From a virus (Duplodnaviria > Heunggongvirae > Uroviricota > Caudoviricetes): a DNA stretch of 11,019 nt. Location: the IMG/VR virus record IMGVR_UViG_2534681990_000030; one strand, written 5' to 3'. Positions 1 to 11,019 of the stretch are shown here, one piece after another (the first letter of the stretch is position 1; the number at the start of each line of letters is the position of its first letter). The notes under the pieces were generated by a model that was given only the letters and a program-made list of their open reading frames with translations, did no database searches and was not told the origin of the DNA. A program made the translations under genes and the position numbers.

Positions 1-186
1 TCATTGGTTGCCAGCCCGCGAATCAAGTTTGTTCTGGATCCAAGCTTCAACCTCCTCAAGCGACCATCTAGCTGATCTACCAATTTTAACTGGCTGTGGA
101 AACGTGCCCGTCTTAACCCATGAGTAGATTGCCGTTTTCTTGAAGCCCGTTCTGAGCATGACTTCGCTTAATTTGATAAGGCGCAT
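1..186 (-). CDS. alpA: AlpA-family phage transcriptional regulator (small HTH DNA-binding protein)
   Basis: 61-aa ORF MRLIKLSEVMLRTGFKKTAIYSWVKTGTFPQPVKIGRSARWSLEEVEAWI matches the AlpA pattern (L..EV...G.S...IY.....G.FP.PVKIG.R...W...E...W). ATG at 186-184 with GAGGAG 6 nt upstream; stop at 3-1. It is transcribed out of the window to the left. Confidence 0.75.
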   Translation of the reverse strand: MRLIKLSEVMLRTGFKKTAIYSWVKTGTFPQPVKIGRSARWSLEEVEAWIQNKLDSRAGNQ

Positions 187-382: not shown

Positions 383-412
383 GTGAAGAATCACCCTGGC
401 TAGCAATATAAT
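383..412 (+). promoter_or_regulatory. Candidate sigma70 promoter for the small gene at 438 (-10 TATAAT at 407-412, weak -35 around 383-389)
   Basis: Perfect TATAAT hexamer 26 nt upstream of the ATG; the -35 match is poor. Sequence-only prediction. Confidence 0.3.
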
Positions 413-437
413 GCCGATCACCATCAGAGGGGAATCC

Positions 438-629
438 ATGACACCACGAGAAATCGAGCTGCTGACCATTGCCAAGCTGGAGCATGGCGGCCACCAGCTC
501 AGCCCGGCAGAACTGCGGGAATTAAGGCGCCAGCTGGCAGAGGGCCCTGTAATAGCCAGGCGGTACCGCGAAATGATGACCAGCCCCGCATATCGCTGGA
601 GCAAACCAGCGCCGCTCCGTGCGCGGTGA
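438..629 (+). CDS. Small hypothetical protein (63 aa), paralog A of a duplicated family
   Basis: ATG at 438 with AGAGGGG 5 nt upstream. I chose 438 over the track's 411 because the paralog at 1438 starts at the equivalent MTPREI and cannot extend upstream (in-frame TGA at 1432-1434). N-terminal 21 aa are 20/21 identical to the 1438 ORF; shared C-terminal REMM..PAY.W.KPAP motif. Confidence 0.6.
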   Translation: MTPREIELLTIAKLEHGGHQLSPAELRELRRQLAEGPVIARRYREMMTSPAYRWSKPAPLRAR

Positions 630-860: not shown

Positions 861-1142
861 ATGATAAGGGACAGGAAAGCTGAAGAGCTGGAGTCAAAAG
901 GGCTATACCGGAGAGCTGCCGCACGATGGATGGAAGTCATGCTGTTATGCACCGAGGACGATGATCGGGAATGGATAAAGCGCCGCCGTGAAACGTGTCT
1001 GGAGAACGTGAAGCGCCCGCCCGTGAAGGTTGAGGAATTTGGCGACCTGCATAAAGCTGTTACCGAAACGCAACACCGCATGGGGATAGCGCAACCGAAC
1101 GGTAACGCCTTCCGGTTAAATGGCGGCAAGAGGCAAAGGTAG
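861..1142 (+). CDS. PerC-family transcriptional regulator (PerC/Pch-like)
   Basis: 93-aa ORF with AEELESKGLYRRAAARWMEVM ... REWIKRRRETC ... TETQHRMGIAQPNGNAFR, matching the conserved PerC/Pch pattern (LE.KGLWRRAA.RW.EV ... WI..RR..C ... TQ.RMGI..P.G.AFR) as I recall it. GAGAGG RBS 4 nt upstream of the ATG. Confidence 0.65.
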   Translation: MIRDRKAEELESKGLYRRAAARWMEVMLLCTEDDDREWIKRRRETCLENVKRPPVKVEEFGDLHKAVTETQHRMGIAQPNGNAFRLNGGKRQR

Positions 1143-1437: not shown

Positions 1438-1623
1438 ATGACACCACGCGAAATAGCCTTATTGACCATCGCCAAACTTGAGCACGGAGGCCACCAGCTT
1501 ACACAGGCAGATCAACGGGAGATAGAACGATCAGTTAATGCCGATATAGCCCGGCGCGACAGGTTCCGCGAAATGATGCGAGCACCTGCCTACCAGTGGA
1601 AGAAGCCAGCGCCGCGCAGGTAG
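1438..1623 (+). CDS. Small hypothetical protein (61 aa), paralog B of a duplicated family
   Basis: ATG at 1438 with AGAGGG 8 nt upstream. Same N-terminus (MTPREIALLTIAKLEHGGHQL) and C-terminal motif as the 438 ORF, with many synonymous nucleotide differences between the copies. Confidence 0.6.
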   Translation: MTPREIALLTIAKLEHGGHQLTQADQREIERSVNADIARRDRFREMMRAPAYQWKKPAPRR

Positions 1624-1743: not shown

Positions 1744-2286
1744 ATGTACCAGCTAAAGATAACCATCCGAGACAGCAAACCACCTATATGGCGGCGTGTG
1801 CTGGTTCCAGAGCAAATCCCCTTTAGTAAACTTCATGCCGTGATCCAGTTAGCTTTTGGCTGGAATGACGAACACCTGTATATGTTCGAGAAAGGGCGTA
1901 AAGGTGATCCAGGTAGCGAGTATCGCGTATGGGGTGAGGATGAAAGCATGGGTAACGCGGCAATCACGCCACTATGGGCGGCGCTCCAGAATGAGGGTGA
2001 CAAGCTGGTTTACACGTATGACTTTGGCGACTGGTGGGATTGCGTCATTGTGCTGGAGAAGCAAACACACGATACGAGTAATCAGCCCATTAGCTGCCTG
2101 CGTGGGAAAGGCACCACCCCGGCGGAAAACTCAGGCGGCTTGCATGGTTACAATGAATTGCTATTACAGGCCAGAGAGTCTGATAATCCTGAGCAGGCCG
2201 AGATCCACAATTTCCTGATGCTGGATATTGAACGCCGGGTTTACGACCTGAGCCGCATCAACGACAGATTGCAGGCTATTAACTGA
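1744..2286 (+). CDS. pRiA4b ORF-3-like family protein (function unknown)
   Basis: 180-aa ORF with the family hallmarks as I recall them: N-terminal LKITIRDSKPPIWRRVLVP....LHAVIQLAFGWNDEHLYMF, central YTYDFGDWWDCVIVLEK, and CLRGKG..PAENSGGLHGY. Preceded by an AT-rich promoter-like region (1624-1743). Confidence 0.7.
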   Translation: MYQLKITIRDSKPPIWRRVLVPEQIPFSKLHAVIQLAFGWNDEHLYMFEKGRKGDPGSEYRVWGEDESMGNAAITPLWAALQNEGDKLVYTYDFGDWWDCVIVLEKQTHDTSNQPISCLRGKGTTPAENSGGLHGYNELLLQARESDNPEQAEIHNFLMLDIERRVYDLSRINDRLQAIN

Positions 2287-3274: not shown

Positions 3275-3913
3275 TCAGATGATTTTGATTTTCCTAAACC
3301 TTGGGTCAGTCAGGAGTCTTTTTTCACCATGTGATGTAATAGTCTGTGCTGCTGTGACTGCGCCGGATTTATCCACCAGCGCCAGCAACAGAGATCCATC
3401 GGGCAACACGGGGAATGTAAAATCACCTACCCCTTTCGCAACCAGATAATCAGATTTGCCGTTTACAGCCTTTCTGCGCATGTCATCAAACTGACGGGAA
3501 AACGTATCCCGTCTTTGTTGTTCGTCCTTCTCTGCCCTTTTCAGGCGCTCCTGTTCGCGTCGCTGGCGCTCGGTTTCCAGTTGTTCCCGTTTCTGGCTGG
3601 TGGCTTCTGGTGTTTCCGTTGTCCGGTAATCAATACCCAGAACATCAGCGGCAAGAAGCGCCGCCTCTGTTGTGTCGCAGTTATTTACGCGTTTAATTAA
3701 ATCCAGCCCATCACCAGCGCCGCACTGATTACAGATGAAGCTACCGCGCCCGTTGTCATCGAACCGGAATCGATCTTTGCCCCCACATGCAGGGCAGGGA
3801 GCATGACGGCGCGGAGAGTCAGGGACATTTATGTTCAGGCAGCCCAGCACATGAGGCCAGTTGTTTTCAGACGCACTGATAACCTGACGGATAAGATCAA
3901 TGTTTCGCATCAC
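3275..3913 (-). CDS. DNA primase (P4 alpha / toprim-type), N-terminal zinc-ribbon portion only; apparently truncated before the catalytic Toprim and helicase domains
   Basis: 212-aa ORF containing HAPCPACGGKDRFRFDDNGRGSFICNQCGAGDGLDL (CxxC...CxxC primase zinc ribbon), a charged linker, then the first residues of a Toprim-like region (DYLVAKGVGDFTFPVLPDGSLLLALVDKSG), ending at a TGA at 3277-3275. Full-length homologs are typically 600-800 aa (from memory). Start is GTG 3913 or ATG 3910. Confidence 0.6.
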   Translation of the reverse strand: MMRNIDLIRQVISASENNWPHVLGCLNINVPDSPRRHAPCPACGGKDRFRFDDNGRGSFICNQCGAGDGLDLIKRVNNCDTTEAALLAADVLGIDYRTTETPEATSQKREQLETERQRREQERLKRAEKDEQQRRDTFSRQFDDMRRKAVNGKSDYLVAKGVGDFTFPVLPDGSLLLALVDKSGAVTAAQTITSHGEKRLLTDPRFRKIKII

Positions 3914-5429: not shown

Positions 5430-5689
5430 TTCGCACTCTCCACATCGATTAAACCGATATCTATCAGGGAGGTAACTTTTTGTAGCCAGCTATTGATTAC
5501 TGTCGCCTGTTCCCCGCCCACCGAGGGAACAATCTCATTCATCACATGAACCAGACCTGTGCGCGCTCTGGTAAGCCGTTCAGTCGCGCAATCTGCGGGA
5601 GTGAATGTGTCTGGATATGGCTCTTCACGCCCCAGCAATGATTCAATTTCCAGCTCACACGGATGACGATAAATTAAGTTGATATTCAT
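5426..5689 (-). CDS. Hypothetical small protein (87 aa)
   Basis: ATGA start/stop overlap at 5686-5689; GGGGGTG RBS upstream. Confidence 0.45.
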   Translation of the reverse strand: MNINLIYRHPCELEIESLLGREEPYPDTFTPADCATERLTRARTGLVHVMNEIVPSVGGEQATVINSWLQKVTSLIDIGLIDVESAK

Positions 5690-5880
5690 TTTTCACCCCC
5701 AAGAATTACCAGCTCGGCACGGGCATCGTTAACCAAAGATGAGCACGCTTTAATCGCATCCACGACATCAGTAGCGTCCATTTCTTCAGCCGAAAGACTG
5801 ACAGCAACCAGGACAGCCGCTGCTTGCTCGATTAATTGAAGTGCGGACGTAAGGCGAGGGGTATTAATTGAGTTATTCAT
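5686..5880 (-). CDS. Hypothetical small protein (64 aa from ATG 5880; the track ORF extends to 5937)
   Basis: ATG 5880 overlaps the preceding stop (5873-5875) by 8 nt. Start choice is uncertain. Confidence 0.4.
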   Translation of the reverse strand: MNNSINTPRLTSALQLIEQAAAVLVAVSLSAEEMDATDVVDAIKACSSLVNDARAELVILGGEK

Positions 5881-6091
5881 TGGTTGCCCCCGTTTTTCCT
5901 GGCATTTCGCCACCTTCCAGCAGGAAATGAACGTCACGAACGGCGAGATCCAATATCGCGAGTAACGCCTTCAGTCTTTCGTCTCGTGAGGGAGAGTTGC
6001 TCACCAGAATGTCGTTAATCACTTCTGTCAGTGTGATGATCTGGCTTGTGCGTTCGAGGGGATCCATATGCACATCGTAGGTTTTAATCAT
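5873..6091 (-). CDS. Hypothetical small protein (72 aa, [17 protein letters not shown]...); an internal in-frame start within the long 5873..6940 ORF
   Basis: ATG at 6091-6089 with GGAGGTG 4 nt upstream, overlapping the Icd-like stop by 8 nt. Sequence is protein-like, unlike the long ORF's frame immediately upstream. Confidence 0.4.
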   Translation of the reverse strand: MIKTYDVHMDPLERTSQIITLTEVINDILVSNSPSRDERLKALLAILDLAVRDVHFLLEGGEMPGKTGATNE

Positions 6092-6940
6092 GTGCCACCT
6101 CCATGCGGATACGACCAGCAAAAAAGCAGATGTGATCGCGCACCAGAGAACGGCGAGCATCGCGTTCAGACTCGGCAGCAATATGATGAATTTTGGCGGT
6201 AATTGTCGGGCAATCGCGGCGAACTGCGGCGATAATCCAGATAAATTGCGGTTTTTGGGTAGGGGTAGTAGCCAGCATGTGGCAGCCTCCTTGTACTGGG
6301 AGTTCTTCCCACCACCGGAGCTGCGAAACTCGCTGGTGGTGGACTGAACAGAGTTCGCAGTACCGGCGTACAAGGAAACCGGCCAGCCTTTCGGCTGCCC
6401 TGTCCAGCCCACCATAATTTTGCAAGCGACGCGGATTATAACCGCATCACTGAAAAAAGTGTGAGTCTGGCTAACGGCACAAAAAAAGACGCTCGGCGCG
6501 TCATGTGTCGCCTCGTACATTTCCGGGCTGCGAAACCCGGCACCCGTTTTATGAGGTGCCTTATAACCATAAACCGTGTTGCCGCATAACGGCAAGCTCT
6601 TTTTTATGGACTCCGAAAACTCACTATTGGAAGCACCAGATGCACAATACATCGCGCTCATTTCGTTAACGTCGCGCGTGTGGACGAAGGTTTTTGTGGA
6701 GTCACTACGCGAGCAGAGAAAGCCATCTACGACCAGAAATTCTCTGGCGCAGCCGCCGACCTTCTCAACGCTAACACCATCGACCGTAATTTCTGACATA
6801 GTTAAGGCATCCGCTCCCACCACCAGAAAATGATAAACTTTGCTTGTATCTGCTGTATTAATGCCAGACTTTGCTGTCATATTGCTGGATTTTGGCGACA
6901 TACCAGCCAGTGAAAATATCTTCTTCTGGACGGTTAGCAT
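5873..6940 (-). CDS. Long ORF (355 aa) of unresolved gene model: hypothetical protein whose first ~170 codons (6940 to ~6430) look protein-like; the remainder overlaps the Icd-like and 72-aa genes
   Basis: ATG at 6940 with GGAGG 7 nt upstream, overlapping the preceding gene's stop. The frame stays open to 5873, but between ~6425 and 6091 its translation is S/L/P/A-rich and unprotein-like while another frame carries the Icd-like gene with a strong RBS. Possible frameshift or lost stop. Confidence 0.35.
6084..6278 (-). CDS. Icd-like protein (host cell division inhibitor Icd-like family), 64 aa
   Basis: [64 protein letters not shown] resembles Icd-like small proteins of P4-type elements (recollection, not a search). 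ATG at 6278-6276 with AAGGAGG 8 nt upstream. It lies out of frame inside the long ORF 5873..6940. Confidence 0.45.
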   Translation of the reverse strand: MLATTPTQKPQFIWIIAAVRRDCPTITAKIHHIAAESERDARRSLVRDHICFFAGRIRMEVAHD

Positions 6941-7116
6941 TTGTTAACCTCCGCGAACTCCTTCATGAAGCGCGCCAGCGGTTGTACGCATGGCGATTGA
7001 TACCCGTCGCGATAAAACGTCACTCGGTTGTGAGACACGCTTTCGACAGTAACGAGTGCTCCGTGGGCATCCTTGTAGCGTTTTTGAGGTTGTGGTGTTC
7101 CTGTCGGCTTAAACAT
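6934..7116 (-). CDS. Hypothetical small protein (60 aa, [60 protein letters not shown])
   Basis: ATG at 7116-7114 with GGAGGTGG 4 nt upstream; overlaps the AntA-like stop. The track's longer ORF to 7203 would overlap the AntA-like gene by ~95 nt. Confidence 0.45.
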   Translation of the reverse strand: MFKPTGTPQPQKRYKDAHGALVTVESVSHNRVTFYRDGYQSPCVQPLARFMKEFAEVNKC

Positions 7117-7942
7117 GGACCACCTCCAGACGCTTAGCGAGCCAGCGTTGCGACAGGCGGGTGAGTTCTCCTTTGCGCTGCTCATATTCCATGCCCATAT
7201 CAATTAACGTGATATTGGTGCTTTCGAGATATGAGAGGTGCTCAAGTTGTTCTGCGTTCATATGGTCGCGAGGTTCGCCAGAATAGCCATTTATCCGCGC
7301 CCACTGCTTAGCAGTTAGCCCACCAAGAACGATACGAGAAATCATATTGCTCTCGTTTGTGTAGTGGTGTTGCTGCGTCGTTTTCCCCTGCTCGGCACGG
7401 GCCATATTCAGCGCATCGCACATTGGCTTAAAGTTGTTTGCGGCACTGATACGGGCTTTTAGCTGGCGAAGATAGCGGGCGGCGATTTCAGGAACGCTAC
7501 GCTGTAATTCTTCCTCGCACTGGATGAAATAACGGCGGATAGCGCGACCCTGATCATTGCGTTCGATCATTGCCAGTTCTTTCGCCATTCCGACACTTAA
7601 CAGATAGTCTTTGCCGGGTCTGCCAGACTGCTTAATCTTTCTGTAAGCCACGCCATTCGGGCTTTTCCCCAAATTTGGGGAAATAGTTTTATGGACTGAG
7701 TAATCGTGCCCAATGGTGAAGTCATATTCAGAGATGCGATCAGTGATCCATGTAGAGAAGTCTTTTCCCACGCCCAACGCTTTGTGTAACGCTTTTGCGC
7801 TAACAATATTGGTTTCACGCCCACCGATATGACCAGGAATAACCGGGACAATTGCGGCAAATTCATTACCGTTAATTGTGCTCAGAGAGGCGTTCAGATG
7901 AGGGGCGGCCTCAGAAATTAATCTGCTTTTTTCGATGTTCAT
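7109..7942 (-). CDS. Phage antirepressor-like protein (AntA/AntB N-terminal domain family)
   Basis: 277-aa ORF. N-terminal NIVSAKALHKALGVGKDFSTWITDRISEYDFTIGHDY matches the AntA/AntB antirepressor motif (ARDLH..L......F..WI..RI..Y.F..G.DF) as I recall it. GGAGA RBS; ATG at 7942. Confidence 0.6.
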   Translation of the reverse strand: MNIEKSRLISEAAPHLNASLSTINGNEFAAIVPVIPGHIGGRETNIVSAKALHKALGVGKDFSTWITDRISEYDFTIGHDYSVHKTISPNLGKSPNGVAYRKIKQSGRPGKDYLLSVGMAKELAMIERNDQGRAIRRYFIQCEEELQRSVPEIAARYLRQLKARISAANNFKPMCDALNMARAEQGKTTQQHHYTNESNMISRIVLGGLTAKQWARINGYSGEPRDHMNAEQLEHLSYLESTNITLIDMGMEYEQRKGELTRLSQRWLAKRLEVVHV

Positions 7943-7954
7943 TTTCAGTCTCCG

Positions 7955-8386
7955 TTAAGCGGCGTTAAACGCGTCCGGGTAGAGTTTCAGAATGTCGGCA
8001 ATTTCCTGCTGAGAAAGTCCGTTGTGATCATTTATGTTCGCAAGATGGTTAATATGAGTGATCACTTTCAGAACATCACCACGGCAGGAGAAACGGTAGC
8101 GAAGGTGTGTTCCGATACCATCAGGATTCTTTTCGTCGATACGCTCCAGAGTGATTCCAAGCTGGCGTTCTAACTCTGTTGCATAGTTACGACCAGAAGA
8201 CAGACGGCAGTAGCGAAGAATGTCATTTTCTGTCCATCCCTCTATACCAGTACGCAGCATATAGACTCTGGCACGATGCTTTTTCGGTGTGCGCTTTGGT
8301 GCTTGAAGGGATTTTGTAAGGGGCGTAACATCAGATACGCGAATATCTGAATTAGCCGCCTGTAATGGGCGGTTTTTCTTATTCAT
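7955..8386 (-). CDS. Hypothetical protein (143 aa), basic N-terminus; possible DNA-binding protein
   Basis: ATG at 8386 overlaps the alpA stop (TAATG). Lys/Arg-rich N-terminus (PKRTPKKHRAR). No specific family recognised. Confidence 0.5.
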   Translation of the reverse strand: MNKKNRPLQAANSDIRVSDVTPLTKSLQAPKRTPKKHRARVYMLRTGIEGWTENDILRYCRLSSGRNYATELERQLGITLERIDEKNPDGIGTHLRYRFSCRGDVLKVITHINHLANINDHNGLSQQEIADILKLYPDAFNAA

Positions 8387-8583
8387 TACGCTACCTCGCC
8401 ACGCGACTCAGCGATGCGCTGATTAATCCATTCTTCAATTTCACTTTCAATAAACGCAATTGATCGGCTTCCAATCTTTACAGATTGAGGGAATCGCTGT
8501 TCTTTGATGAGCCGATAAATCCACGCTTTGCTGTAACCAGTACGGCGTTGAACCTCAGAAAGACGAATAAATGATTGAGACAT
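8386..8583 (-). CDS. alpA: AlpA-family phage transcriptional regulator
   Basis: 65-aa ORF FIRLSEVQRRTGYSKAWIYRLIKEQRFPQSVKIGSRSIAFIESEIEEWI matches the AlpA pattern. AGGAG RBS 5 nt upstream of ATG 8583. Positioned as first gene of the coupled operon downstream of the integrase. Confidence 0.8.
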   Translation of the reverse strand: MSQSFIRLSEVQRRTGYSKAWIYRLIKEQRFPQSVKIGSRSIAFIESEIEEWINQRIAESRGEVA

Positions 8584-8664
8584 GTTTACTCCTATATTCT
8601 GTCATCTTCTTTAATGGACATCAGTAGACAGAAAGGAGATTAAACAAACCGGTGAATGGGTGAT

Positions 8665-8736
8665 AGCGGATAAAAATAAAATATTTTTTTGAGAAGATTA
8701 TCCGCTTTGAAATACACAGTAGCGTATTCAAAGCGG
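8665..8736. promoter_or_regulatory. Two overlapping perfect palindromes upstream of alpA: AGCGGATA (8665-8672) / TATCCGCT (8699-8706) around an AT-rich 26-bp spacer, and CCGCTTTGAA (8702-8711) / TTCAAAGCGG (8727-8736)
   Basis: Read directly from the sequence. Located 80-150 bp upstream of the alpA start in the AT-rich spacer after the 293-aa gene. No U-tract follows on either strand, so an operator is more likely than a terminator. Confidence 0.45.
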
Positions 8737-8780
8737 AAATCGCGAAATTTACTTAAAACGTTTACGTAGGATTTTGCTTG

Positions 8781-9662
8781 CTATAAATCTCTACTCATTA
8801 AATCAGATATTTTTATCAAGCTCATTTCTCTGTCTTTGTTTACATAAAGCTGAAGCAAGCGGGTGTATCTCTCGCTTATAGATTCAAGTGCAAAAGGCTT
8901 TATTGATTCCTTAATAGCCTGCGTATCTTTCGGATCATCACTAAAAACCAAGGCAGAAATCATCGGATTGCTCACTTCCTTACCTGACTTCTCACCCCAA
9001 ATCAGCAGATCAACAATAGGTATCACTCTATTAGATATCAACTTCTGAAGGGTCTTTAATCCAATCCTTTTCTGAGCGACATGCTCTCTCTCTGGTACTT
9101 TTAACTCTTTTCGCCATAGAGGTAGAAGGTGAGTCAGGCTGGTAATAATTTCGTCATCAGTGGCGTCATCTAAATCTATAGAAACGAGTATGATGTTAGG
9201 GGAACAATTACTTAGGTTTCCAGTAACACTCGCAAGCATAGCGTTTGCCTTGAGGTAGCAATCCTCTTCGTCTCTTTTAAAAAAGCCTTGATCTATCGAT
9301 GAGAAAGAGTACATGGCCAGCTCTGAAAATGTTACTGGACTAACCCCCATAGCTGAAGATAATGAGGGAAGATCATCGTACTCATTTCTTAATGATGGGG
9401 CTTCATCATTTACTTTGCGAATAAATTCTTCGACCTCTTCCTCTTCTTCATTGAGAATGGTTAGGTTAGGATCGCCCGAAAAAATCCTTTCATATTTTAT
9501 ATCGTACTCTTCTTTGAATATAGCAGTGTCATCTTTTGCATGACGCAATAAAAAATCGCGCCACTCTAATTCTTGAATCAAGTCCGGCAAGGTTAAATCA
9601 TTTAAAAATTCATAATTACTAATATCAAACCATGCTAAATCTTGTTTTTTGGCTCTCACCAT
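8781..9662 (-). CDS. Hypothetical protein (293 aa), low-GC orphan gene in the integrase-alpA slot; acidic stretches (NEEEEEVEEF); no recognisable catalytic motif
   Basis: Long ORF with ATG at 9662 and GGGGTGG upstream. Composition is clearly more AT-rich than the flanking integrase and alpA operon, and it is bounded by AT-rich spacers. Confidence 0.6.
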   Translation of the reverse strand: MVRAKKQDLAWFDISNYEFLNDLTLPDLIQELEWRDFLLRHAKDDTAIFKEEYDIKYERIFSGDPNLTILNEEEEEVEEFIRKVNDEAPSLRNEYDDLPSLSSAMGVSPVTFSELAMYSFSSIDQGFFKRDEEDCYLKANAMLASVTGNLSNCSPNIILVSIDLDDATDDEIITSLTHLLPLWRKELKVPEREHVAQKRIGLKTLQKLISNRVIPIVDLLIWGEKSGKEVSNPMISALVFSDDPKDTQAIKESIKPFALESISERYTRLLQLYVNKDREMSLIKISDLMSRDL

Positions 9663-9804
9663 ACGCCACCCCGCGCCCCTAATTCTGACGGCTATGCCAG
9701 CCCGTAGGGGTGTACGGGTTTTCGGGGATCAGCCTAGACATAGCCTATTCTTTGTTCGTCTACATAAGTCTACTACCATTGCTTAACACGGTCTATTCAT
9801 ACAG

Positions 9805-11019
9805 TTAAGCTCGTTTCCCAAACGAACCATGAACAACGTTCTCCTCCTTCTCCAGCGCATCCATATAGTCGGCATACCATTGAAGCATCTCCCGCCTTCC
9901 ATCCAGATATTGCGCATGGTTGTATGTGCCACGAATTGAGTTCTTATCAACGTGAGCGAGCTGCGTTTCTATCCACGCGGTGTTATAGCCCTGCTCATGC
10001 AAAATCGTGCTCATAGTGTGCCGGAACCCATGACCAGTTACACGTCCAGCGTAGCCAATGCGCTTAAACACTTGGTTTATGCTGGCCTCACTCATTGTTT
10101 TCCTTGGATCATTGCGCCCGGGAAACATAAGAGGGTAATTGCCTGTTATTTCTCTAATCTTCCCAATAAGCGAAAGAGCCTGATCAGACAATGGCACAAT
10201 ATGAGGCCGCCGCATTTTCATACGTGAAGCGGGTATCTCCCAGATAGCCTTGTTGAAATCAATTTCATCCCATAATGCGCCACGTAGTTCGCCAGTCCGC
10301 AAGCCGGTGATAATCAGTAGACGAGCCGCCATAACAACCAATGCGCTTCCTGAGTAACTGGACAATGCCTTGAAAAAATCAGGTAATTCTTTAGCTGTAA
10401 GGAAAGGGTAATGATTAGATTCATGGCCTTGCATCGCGCTAGTAAGGTCTGGTGCAGGGTTATACTCTGCGCGACCAGTGACTATTGCATAGCGGAAAAC
10501 TTCCCCGCACCGCTGCCTCACTTTTTTGGCTTTTTCTGTAGCACCGCGCCCCTCGATGCGCCGCAGCACATTCAGAAGTTCAAGTGGTTTGATTTCGGCG
10601 ATTGGTTTTTTGCCAATGTAAGGGAACACATCTTTGTTGAAGGCTTCGAGGATGTCTGAAGCATAACCAGCAGACCATTTTTTTAATTTGCTGCTGTGCC
10701 ACTCAAGGGCAATATCTTTGAAGGTGTTGTTTAACTGCGTTTCCCGGGCAATCTTTTCCTCTCGTTTCGCTTCCATCGGATCGATACCACCAGCGATACC
10801 TCTTTTCGCATCTTCACGTTTTGCCCGAGCATCGGCTAGAGTAACCTCAGGATACACACCTAGTGCCAATAGCTTCTCTTTACCAGCTACACGATATTTA
10901 AGTCGCCAGTATTTACCTCCATTAGGTTTTACCAAGAGATACAAACCGCCACCATCGGCCAGCTTGTAAGCCTTCTCTTTTGGCTTGGCTGTGTCTATTT
11001 GACGGGCATTGAGTTTCAC
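9805..11019 (-). CDS. int: Tyrosine recombinase / phage integrase (P4-type); N-terminus at or just beyond the window edge
   Basis: 404-aa ORF with an N-terminal arm-binding-type motif (AKPKEKAYKLADGGGLYLLVKPNGGKYWRLKYR) and C-terminal catalytic signature HGFRHT ... IRGTYNHAQY (HxxR and nucleophile Tyr). The first codon in the window is GTG at the very last base, so the true start may lie upstream. Confidence 0.9.
   Translation of the reverse strand: MKLNARQIDTAKPKEKAYKLADGGGLYLLVKPNGGKYWRLKYRVAGKEKLLALGVYPEVTLADARAKREDAKRGIAGGIDPMEAKREEKIARETQLNNTFKDIALEWHSSKLKKWSAGYASDILEAFNKDVFPYIGKKPIAEIKPLELLNVLRRIEGRGATEKAKKVRQRCGEVFRYAIVTGRAEYNPAPDLTSAMQGHESNHYPFLTAKELPDFFKALSSYSGSALVVMAARLLIITGLRTGELRGALWDEIDFNKAIWEIPASRMKMRRPHIVPLSDQALSLIGKIREITGNYPLMFPGRNDPRKTMSEASINQVFKRIGYAGRVTGHGFRHTMSTILHEQGYNTAWIETQLAHVDKNSIRGTYNHAQYLDGRREMLQWYADYMDALEKEENVVHGSFGKRA

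Follow-up and report, generated by a model that had tools for sequence, protein, structure and literature searches.

We analysed a viral DNA window of 11,019 nucleotides (nt; the whole stretch of caudoviricete record IMGVR_UViG_2534681990_000030), in which a 355-amino-acid (aa) open reading frame (ORF) on the minus strand, at 6940..5873 in both the ORF list and a check of the sequence, encloses two regulatory RNAs and an out-of-frame gene. The region is probably the P4-type immunity module of a P4-like integrative island of Escherichia coli, with the long ORF as its eta-type read-through frame. From its ATG the frame crosses a leader RNA, a C4-type antisense RNA and, in the +1 frame, an icd/kil-type gene, and terminates at the stop codon of a 72-aa gene (orf72). 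The system is a known one and the window is a minor variant of it, in which the long frame is shifted by one base against icd and instead continues into the next gene. The initial annotation had described the 355-aa ORF, an Icd-like ORF and an internal 72-aa ORF. All three are present on the minus strand, and among the explanations that it offered an unusual nested arrangement proved to be the right one, two Rfam RNAs and icd lying inside the long frame. Features below are on the minus strand unless another strand is given.

An antisense immunity cassette inside the long ORF

Two Rfam families scored above their gathering thresholds within the long ORF and on the same strand: an isrK/seqA-type leader RNA at 6482..6559 (RF01394, 69 bits against 50) and a C4/CI-type antisense immunity RNA at 6332..6419 (RF01695, 81.1 bits against 45, over the full-length model). 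The middle of the ORF, which had been taken for low-complexity sequence, in fact holds these two structured RNAs. The leader carries target boxes a1 (TTCGCAG, 6534..6528) and b1 (TGTACGAGG, 6519..6511) and ends, according to a terminator scan, in a predicted intrinsic terminator composed of a hairpin (6502..6488) and a T-run (6487..6481). The C4 RNA has box b' (CCTTGTAC, 6375..6368) in the loop of hairpin 2 and box a' (CTGCGAA, 6360..6354) in the junction, and its 3' end, ...CACCACCA, is tRNA-like. The seqC-type downstream targets of the C4 RNA occupy 6283..6327, with a2 (TTCGCAG) at 6327..6321 and b2 (GTACAAGGAGGCTG) at 6296..6283; b2 spans the Shine-Dalgarno (SD) sequence of icd, AAGGAGG, at 6292..6286.

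Complementarity between boxes and targets was assessed with an ungapped helix scan, as RNAduplex applied to whole segments returned only long, uninterpretable duplexes. In 17 of 17 loci, both C4 boxes were complementary to sites in the leader and to sites near positions -50 and -19 relative to the icd ATG. The box sequences themselves vary and co-vary with their targets, giving at least 10 specificities among the 17 loci. The three-helix structure of the C4 RNA was similarly well preserved: across 32 loci, 99.8% of 864 cells were paired and 16 of the 27 pairs showed compensatory changes, as compared with 29-49% pairing in slid controls and not one equally good result in 500 shuffles.

The gene whose ribosome-binding site is targeted, icd (WP_001377265.1; 6084..6278, 64 aa), lies in the -1 frame relative to the long ORF, begins with the ATG at 6278 and stops at the TAA at 6086..6084. 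Its product scored 70.4 bits against the NCBIfam model phage_ICD_like (cut-off 25), which bears out the Icd-like identity first proposed for it. The gene is a homolog of P4 kil and P1 icd and is predicted to be the first one controlled by the C4 RNA.

Upstream of the leader, a putative sigma-70-type promoter at 6566..6595 corresponds to PLE of P4. It consists of a -35 element TTGCCG (6595..6590), an 18-nt spacer and a -10 element TATGGT (6571..6566), with a presumed +1 at about 6559. In an alignment of 34 loci that included P4, the consensus GGCTTGC-N17/18-TATaGT stood 6-7 nt before position 1 of the isrK model. The ATG of the long ORF is 381 nt further upstream of this +1 (6559). It is preceded by an SD sequence, GGAGG, at 6952..6948, and overlaps the TAA stop codon (6936..6934) of the upstream DUF4222 gene in the motif ATGCTAA, with the ATG at 6940. 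Collectively, at the level of sequence, the window has all of the defining features of the P4/P1 antisense immunity cassette (Rfam C4 RF01695 with isrK RF01394 or c4-a1b1 RF03163).

The promoter region also contains a near-perfect palindrome, TTGCCGTTATGCGGCAA (6579..6595, minus strand), which covers the -35 element and part of the promoter spacer and was also reported by the terminator scan as a terminator-like hairpin on the plus strand. Of the 34 loci in the alignment, only the window and the near-identical L004 have the exact TTGCCGTTATGCGGCAA. The palindrome could be an operator.

The frame across the RNAs is open in nearly all relatives

We carried out a census of 80 loci, one genome per species, anchored on the Icd/Kil protein only. 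Frames were analysed in the 78 distinct loci with enough upstream sequence, namely 76 of the 80 together with the window and P4. Rfam recovered the order isrK, C4, icd in 35 of the first 40 loci. In 76 of the 78 loci one frame was stop-free over the 330 nt that precede the icd ATG, and the other two frames, with a mean of 2.4-5.9 stops, were never open. Two arrangements were found. As in P4, the frame coincides with that of icd in 69 loci, 67 of which were stop-free over -330..0; in nine loci (the window, L004, L005, L010, L011, L013, L014, L018 and L021) it is the +1 frame, and all nine were stop-free. The same long frame as in the window is therefore open in relatives from eight other species. 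The frame is open over the RNAs far more consistently than chance would allow.

The spacer between leader and C4 RNA (6420..6481 in the window) is very variable in sequence and length among the relatives, and is stop-free in the long-ORF frame. Forty distinct spacers of nine lengths, ranging from 23 to 107 nt, contained no stop codons in the long frame versus 21 and 13 in the other two, and all spacer indels were multiples of three. The isrK-to-C4 distance fell into seven classes (101 to 185 nt), every one of them 2 mod 3. In each of 34 loci examined the long frame has an ATG before the leader +1; P4-like loci have a triple ATG at -75/-72/-69 relative to that position. RNAalifold gave no column-consistent or consensus structure for the spacer. 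By eye, the spacers of the window and of L005-L084 each seemed able to form a hairpin after a T-rich stretch, with shifts in register; the candidate hairpin in the window is GCGG-TTATAAT-CCGC.

The one-base offset is visible in the distance from the C4 RNA to the icd ATG, which is 141 nt in the window as compared with 142 nt in in-frame loci. The sibling locus P0106/L087, despite an Icd protein 95% identical to that of the window, has the P4-like arrangement and places the same N-terminus in frame with icd. In an Stx1 phage the design recurs, with a Rha-type antirepressor joined to it in frame.

Two further observations were made on the frame in relatives. The long ORF is prone to frameshifts at the T7 run of the leader terminator (6481..6487, minus strand): in a few database variants the frame changes precisely at this run and the protein is 210 aa long. 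They could reflect real variation or homopolymer sequencing error. Five loci (L015, L016, L017, L020 and L022, from a Paenochrobactrum metagenome-assembled genome, Rosenbergiella, Tatumella (two) and Erwinia) had no isrK or C4 match at Rfam gathering scores, yet in each of them icd is preceded by a long ORF in its own frame, 645-1104 nt in length; they may have a divergent RNA or a different arrangement.

The amino-acid sequence of the long ORF is not clearly constrained

We compared ratios of nonsynonymous to synonymous differences (pN/pS) among frames. Over the icd overlap, pN/pS was 0.15-0.47 in the icd frame versus 1.6-2.9 in the long-ORF frame, which indicates purifying selection on icd in its own frame only. 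The spacer is highly diverged (pS ~0.55), with a pN/pS of 0.75 in the long frame versus 0.85-0.95 in the other two. In the N-terminal 123 codons (6572..6940), values of 0.45-0.61 were no better than in one of the off frames, in a comparison limited to three close relatives and few sites. This segment diverges by 4-9% versus about 2% for the neighbouring AntA gene, and codon position 2 changes least (4 of 28 differences). It has no known domain, gave no Pfam or PHROG match and is mosaic among relatives, where N-termini are mosaic or unrelated and the C-terminally fused gene varies too. The peptide encoded across the C4 RNA has likewise changed radically among loci although nearly all base pairs were kept. 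The initial annotation had judged the ORF to be protein-like for about 170 codons; in fact codons 128-153 are already isrK-type leader, and the first 123 codons have neither a family match nor clear protein constraint. The amino-acid sequence of the long ORF is thus not clearly constrained, so that translation probably matters more than the product, and it is translation of the long ORF, more than its product, that appears to be conserved.

The sole Pfam match of the 355-aa ORF was Phage_ASH (PF10554; aa 124-232, 99.2 bits against a gathering threshold of 26), and it corresponds to nt 6571..6245, exactly the segment that holds both RNAs, isrK and C4, together with the ribosome-binding site of icd. 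The P4 ORFs with a Phage_ASH match are the one historically named 'cI gene product' and a longer one (8812..8168), over nt 8704..8330, and in the Ant ORF of a Shiga toxin (Stx) phage the match again coincides with the RNA cassette. Six PHROG families matched the long ORF, some of them labelled transcriptional regulator or repressor. PHROG 6928 ('transcriptional repressor'), a P4-type profile, is divided here, with positions 31-149 in the long ORF and 138-194 in the Icd frame. As to whether conservation of Phage_ASH reflects a folded protein, the match coincides with the cassette in the window, P4 and the Stx phage, the RNA structure is conserved and the spacer lacks protein-level constraint. 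Judged by these coordinates, the 'ash family protein' modelled by PF10554 appears to be the translation of an RNA cassette. P4 epsilon (7888..8175) belongs to PF25738, not PF10554. A survey of P4-like satellites uses PF10554 as its profile for epsilon (PMC8628076); as a marker in that survey PF10554 probably detects the immunity RNA region. For satellite detection, PF10554 marks the cI/eta region of P4 and not epsilon.

Conflicting gene models in a widespread E. coli island

The long ORF is annotated in RefSeq as 'ash family protein' (WP_000958750.1; 5873..6940, 355 aa). On identical DNA, the Prokaryotic Genome Annotation Pipeline (PGAP) gave either a single 1068-nt 'ash family protein' gene or an Icd-like gene together with a partial 'ash family' pseudogene, and Icd was left uncalled in 24 of the 25 best E. 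coli records. The suspicion that automated callers would merge or drop genes here was well founded: with two RNAs and icd inside a read-through frame, pipelines disagree at this locus. The usual PGAP call loses the gene for an Icd-like toxin or division inhibitor, the 72-aa gene and two regulatory RNAs, and recognition of the RNA cassette corrects the gene model. The island is widespread: a match to the region occurs in at least 1,156 of the 5,426 complete E. coli genomes. Over its 1651 bp, at least six independent complete genomes agree in every base (100% identity), and in 351 records the identity is at least 99%.

Full-length clusters of the long-ORF protein hold hundreds of members, and its colinear homologs, of about 329-355 aa, occur in several genera at identities down to 48%. 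The initial annotation had held that a conserved, colinear protein of about 355 aa, with no Icd homologs matching the embedded frame, would argue against nested genes. The first part stood, since colinear homologs of about 330-355 aa do exist; the second did not, as Icd homologs also match the embedded frame.

A model for the module and its alternatives

By extension from P4 and P1, the internal promoter would in the quiescent state make the leader and then, by read-through and processing, a stable C4-type RNA. This RNA would pair with both sets of targets and cover the icd SD sequence, blocking icd translation. Since icd is followed by translationally coupled genes, the pairing would lead to premature termination before the downstream genes, and the replication genes would stay off. 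Processing of the C4-type RNA by RNase P and Rho-dependent premature termination would be expected at this locus on the same analogy. When the alpA-orf143-antA-DUF4222 operon is on, its transcripts would carry the long ORF, and ribosomes translating it would pass through leader, C4 and icd, preventing RNA pairing, formation of the terminator hairpin and the action of Rho. Transcripts initiated upstream would thereby escape immunity. Conservation of the open frame indirectly supports the idea that translation of the long ORF makes such transcripts insensitive to immunity.

We tentatively extend this model to suggest that the long 'Ash/Eta' ORF might be conserved solely as a track for ribosomes, that is, as a stop-free frame with indels in threes and an ATG before the internal promoter, a frame that may slip relative to icd and fuse to the next gene without loss of function; the window and eight other species-level loci would be instances of this. 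We hold this extension with less confidence than the assignment of the module itself. If it is correct, PF10554, several PHROGs and the 'ash family protein' would constitute a family whose similarity stems from RNA structure, and searches for satellites in which PF10554 stands for 'epsilon' would be picking up the immunity RNA cassette.

Several observations weigh against an eta-type module. The internal promoter fits the sigma-70 consensus at just 8 of 12 positions and was missed by a generic scan. That this promoter is active, that the RNA is processed, that termination depends on Rho and that the long ORF is translated is in each case extrapolated from the known systems. The P2/P4 motif of helper-activated late promoters, TGT-N12-ACA, was not found upstream of alpA; its sole match in the window, at 1058..1075, is not above chance, so the search yielded no late promoter that would feed the long ORF. 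The defining nesting of kil in frame within eta is absent from the window and present in the sibling L087/P0106. The openness of the +1 frame across icd is also less telling than that over the RNAs. That frame was open in nine of nine offset loci versus 37 of 69 in-frame loci, and it stays open in 77-100% of synonymous recodings of this icd; the joint p value was ~0.015 over 8 loci and single loci were not significant, so that the support for selection on +1 openness across icd is weak. Constraint on RNA sequence, rather than selection on translation, could explain part of the openness of the frame, and because the loci of the census are related its counts are not fully independent. Finally, rare loci (L046 and L071) have a broken frame, and P0065 and P0078 shift frame in the T-run of the leader terminator.

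One alternative is that the 355-aa ORF is untranslated, having been opened accidentally by RNA constraints and by the stop-poor +1 frame of icd, so that the real elements would be the leader, C4, icd and orf72. The lack of protein-level constraint in the N-terminal 123 codons, the spacer and the icd overlap is what would be expected in that case, as are the mosaic N-termini, the chance openness of the icd +1 frame in most recodings and the absence of any domain beyond the RNA-derived Phage_ASH match. Accidental opening does not readily account for the finding that exactly one frame is stop-free in nearly all loci while the other two always contain stops, nor for a diverged spacer with no stops in any of its 40 versions and indels only in multiples of three. 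The ATG upstream of the promoter +1 in every aligned locus, which in the window has an SD sequence and overlaps the stop of the upstream gene, also argues for translation. A P1-like phage, by comparison, has the RNAs without such an ORF, at a spacing of a different residue class, and translation of Eta is reported to prevent termination at the homologous P4 ORF (as summarized in PMC10111431). We consider an untranslated ORF rather unlikely. Conversely, the long ORF could encode a genuine multi-domain regulatory protein of the 'Ash' or Bro network, whose sequence matters and in which the RNAs are merely embedded. A Pfam score of 99 bits, six PHROG families, some with regulator or repressor labels, and colinear 329-355-aa homologs in several genera speak for such a protein, as do the listing of Phage_ASH among Bro-network domains (PMC10111431) and the relative stability of codon position 2 in the N-terminal part. 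However, every family match corresponds to the RNA cassette, and in P4 to the old 'cI protein' ORF, whereas the repressor there is the CI RNA. Moreover, the C4-encoded peptide varies radically while 99.8% of base pairs are kept, the C-terminal third is icd read out of frame with pN/pS above 1.5, and the close relatives P0106/L087 put the same N-terminus in frame with icd. This makes a sequence-dependent regulator improbable.

The initial annotation had also raised the possibility of an upstream gene that lost its stop codon or was frameshifted, and had pointed to a possible indel near 6425-6450; on that reading, or if the assembly were in error there, the long ORF would be a pseudogene-like fusion. 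In one genome PGAP does label part of the region as an incomplete 'ash family' pseudogene, and a few sequences carry homopolymer-linked frameshift variants at the T-run of the terminator. On the other side are the identity of the DNA in at least six independent complete genomes (at least 99% in the 351 records), the large clusters of full-length proteins, the open frame in nine offset and 67 in-frame species-level loci, and the equivalent ORF carried by P4 itself. A sequencing or assembly indel near 6425-6450 was rejected, since many genomes share exactly this sequence and different species have kept the frame, and a decayed fusion is scarcely credible. An eta-type read-through frame over an antisense immunity cassette remains the explanation that we favour.

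Neighbouring genes and other features of the island

The DUF4222 gene upstream of the long ORF (6934..7116; Pfam DUF4222, 85 bits; PGAP coordinates) is the last of the tightly packed operon alpA-orf143-antA-DUF4222, in which the AntA-domain gene is at 7942..7109. At the other end, orf72 (5873..6091, 72 aa) is in the frame of the long ORF. It has its own SD sequence, GGAGG, at 6102..6098 (GGAGGTG, 6102..6096) and its start overlaps the icd stop codon in ATGATTAA. We take orf72 to be a real downstream gene. At the sibling locus L087 it is called as a separate 72-aa gene, its orthologs in Leclercia and Symbiopectobacterium (L011, L014) show protein-like conservation, and the C-terminal segment of the Klebsiella long-ORF proteins that matches orf72 is also conserved in a protein-like manner. 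A gene of 64 aa annotated by PGAP follows (5686..5880), and its ATG overlaps the shared stop codon of the long ORF and orf72 in ATGAATAA. Searches of Pfam, NCBIfam and PHROG gave no family match for orf72, this 64-aa gene or the N-terminal segment of the long ORF, and orf72 in particular had no Ant, Bro or KilA match in the family searches.

The same 8-nt start/stop overlap, ATGNNTAA, links antA to DUF4222 (7109..7116), icd to orf72 (6084..6091) and the long ORF and orf72 to the next gene (5873..5880), all on the minus strand. The ATGNNTAA overlap means that every downstream gene is read in the +1 frame of the gene before it.

Elsewhere in the window, an int-alpA RNA (9677..9744, minus strand; Rfam RF02996, 46.7 bits against 35.8) is flanked by genes for an integrase (11019..9805) and a DUF6387 protein (9662..8781). 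The primase gene (3275..3913, minus strand) is truncated: its product has 212 aa and, of the domains in the 918-aa primases of the related loci L084 and L087 (Zn_Ribbon_Prim + Toprim_3 + DUF927), keeps the Zn-ribbon primase domain alone. From this truncation, the island appears to be decayed or rearranged downstream of ~3275. The left end of the window resembles part of another mobile-element module (1..186, minus; 411..629, 1438..1623 and 1744..2286, plus). It includes a second AlpA-like ORF running off the start of the window, a gene of the PRiA4_ORF3 family and two paralogous small ORFs that have 'MTPREIxLLTIAKLEHGGHQL' in common.

Comparison with P1/P7, Gifsy-1 and P4

The immI region of P1/P7 (c4-icd-ant1/2; Citron & Schuster 1990 and Riedel et al. 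1993, as described in PMC8198154) resembles the window in that a C4-family RNA is followed by an Icd-family gene, targets a1b1 lie upstream and a2b2 downstream of the RNA with the downstream site at the icd ribosome-binding site, and the next gene overlaps the 3' end of icd. In contrast to the window, RCS47, a P1-like phage, lacks an ORF that crosses c4: the one opening at 1420 terminates at 1626, short of C4 (1641). Its isrK-to-C4 spacing is of a different residue class mod 3 from that of eta-type loci. In P1 the gene after icd encodes the antirepressor Ant, whereas in the window an AntA-domain gene lies upstream and the downstream gene is unrelated. The P1-type feature of an ant gene overlapping the 3' end of icd as regulated output is thus absent.

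In the IsrK-orf45 (STnc1160)-anrP system of Salmonella Gifsy-1, as described by Hershko-Shalev et al. 2016 (PMC4825925), the regulated gene is an antirepressor and a trans-activating role is assigned to the leader RNA; the sections of that source that were consulted describe no long ORF from upstream. The leader of the window fits the IsrK-based Rfam family, including the read-through terminator. In Gifsy-1, and presumably in the window, a processed RNA and a translated short ORF downstream control a coupled gene.

The closest counterpart is the immunity region of P4, PLE-seqA-CI-seqC with nested eta and kil (Forti et al. 1999, J Bacteriol 181:5225, as summarized in PMC10111431; Sabbattini et al. 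1995). With the C4 and isrK models, relatives of P4 CI and seqA can be recognised (PMC10111431), IsrK is described as a structural homolog of P4 seqA (PMC4825925), and both sources present the P4 repressor as the CI RNA. According to PMC10111431, which cites Forti et al. 1999, the eta gene of P4 includes seqA, CI and an internal promoter that is constitutive, and Kil is Eta in truncated form. Translation of Eta, which prevents termination, takes place only from the upstream late promoter and is coupled to that of the alpA homolog. Our searches of P4 (NC_001609) placed isrK at 8692..8615 and C4, which is the CI RNA, at 8507..8420, the same order as in the window. The last 65 codons of the P4 ORF 8812..8168 correspond to the predicted 65-aa Kil, which is 41% identical to the Icd-like protein of the window. 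The two regions share the order and spacing of promoter, leader, C4/CI RNA and Kil/Icd homolog, the two-box complementarity to upstream and downstream targets, and a long ORF that starts upstream of the internal promoter and runs in the same frame through both RNAs (P4 peptides TYDAPRVFFCV / MVAQAGQPPGWPVS). In both, the long ORF is coupled to the preceding gene, the alpA homolog in P4 and DUF4222 in the window (ATGCTAA, SD 6952..6948), and the start of the gene after kil or icd overlaps the kil/icd stop by 8 nt.

The P4 long ORF directly follows the alpA homolog vis, whereas that of the window is the fifth gene, after alpA, orf143, antA and DUF4222, and has a 123-codon N-terminal extension. 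The gene after icd encodes a 72-aa protein of no known family in the window and epsilon in P4. Unlike P4, the island has no sid, delta or psu genes in the window and no TGT-N12-ACA upstream of alpA. P4 kil forms the in-frame C-terminal 65 codons of eta, whereas the long frame of the window is off by one base from icd and ends with orf72. By its predicted elements the window thus has two of the three features of eta/kil, an upstream start with a frame spanning the RNAs and coupling to the preceding gene, and lacks the third, in-frame nesting. The census indicates that nesting of kil in frame with eta is dispensable, and its approximately 78 species-level loci provide comparative support for the idea, derived from P4, that translating a long ORF through the immunity RNAs is the selected function. 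Current understanding of P4- or P1-type immunity is not overturned by these results.

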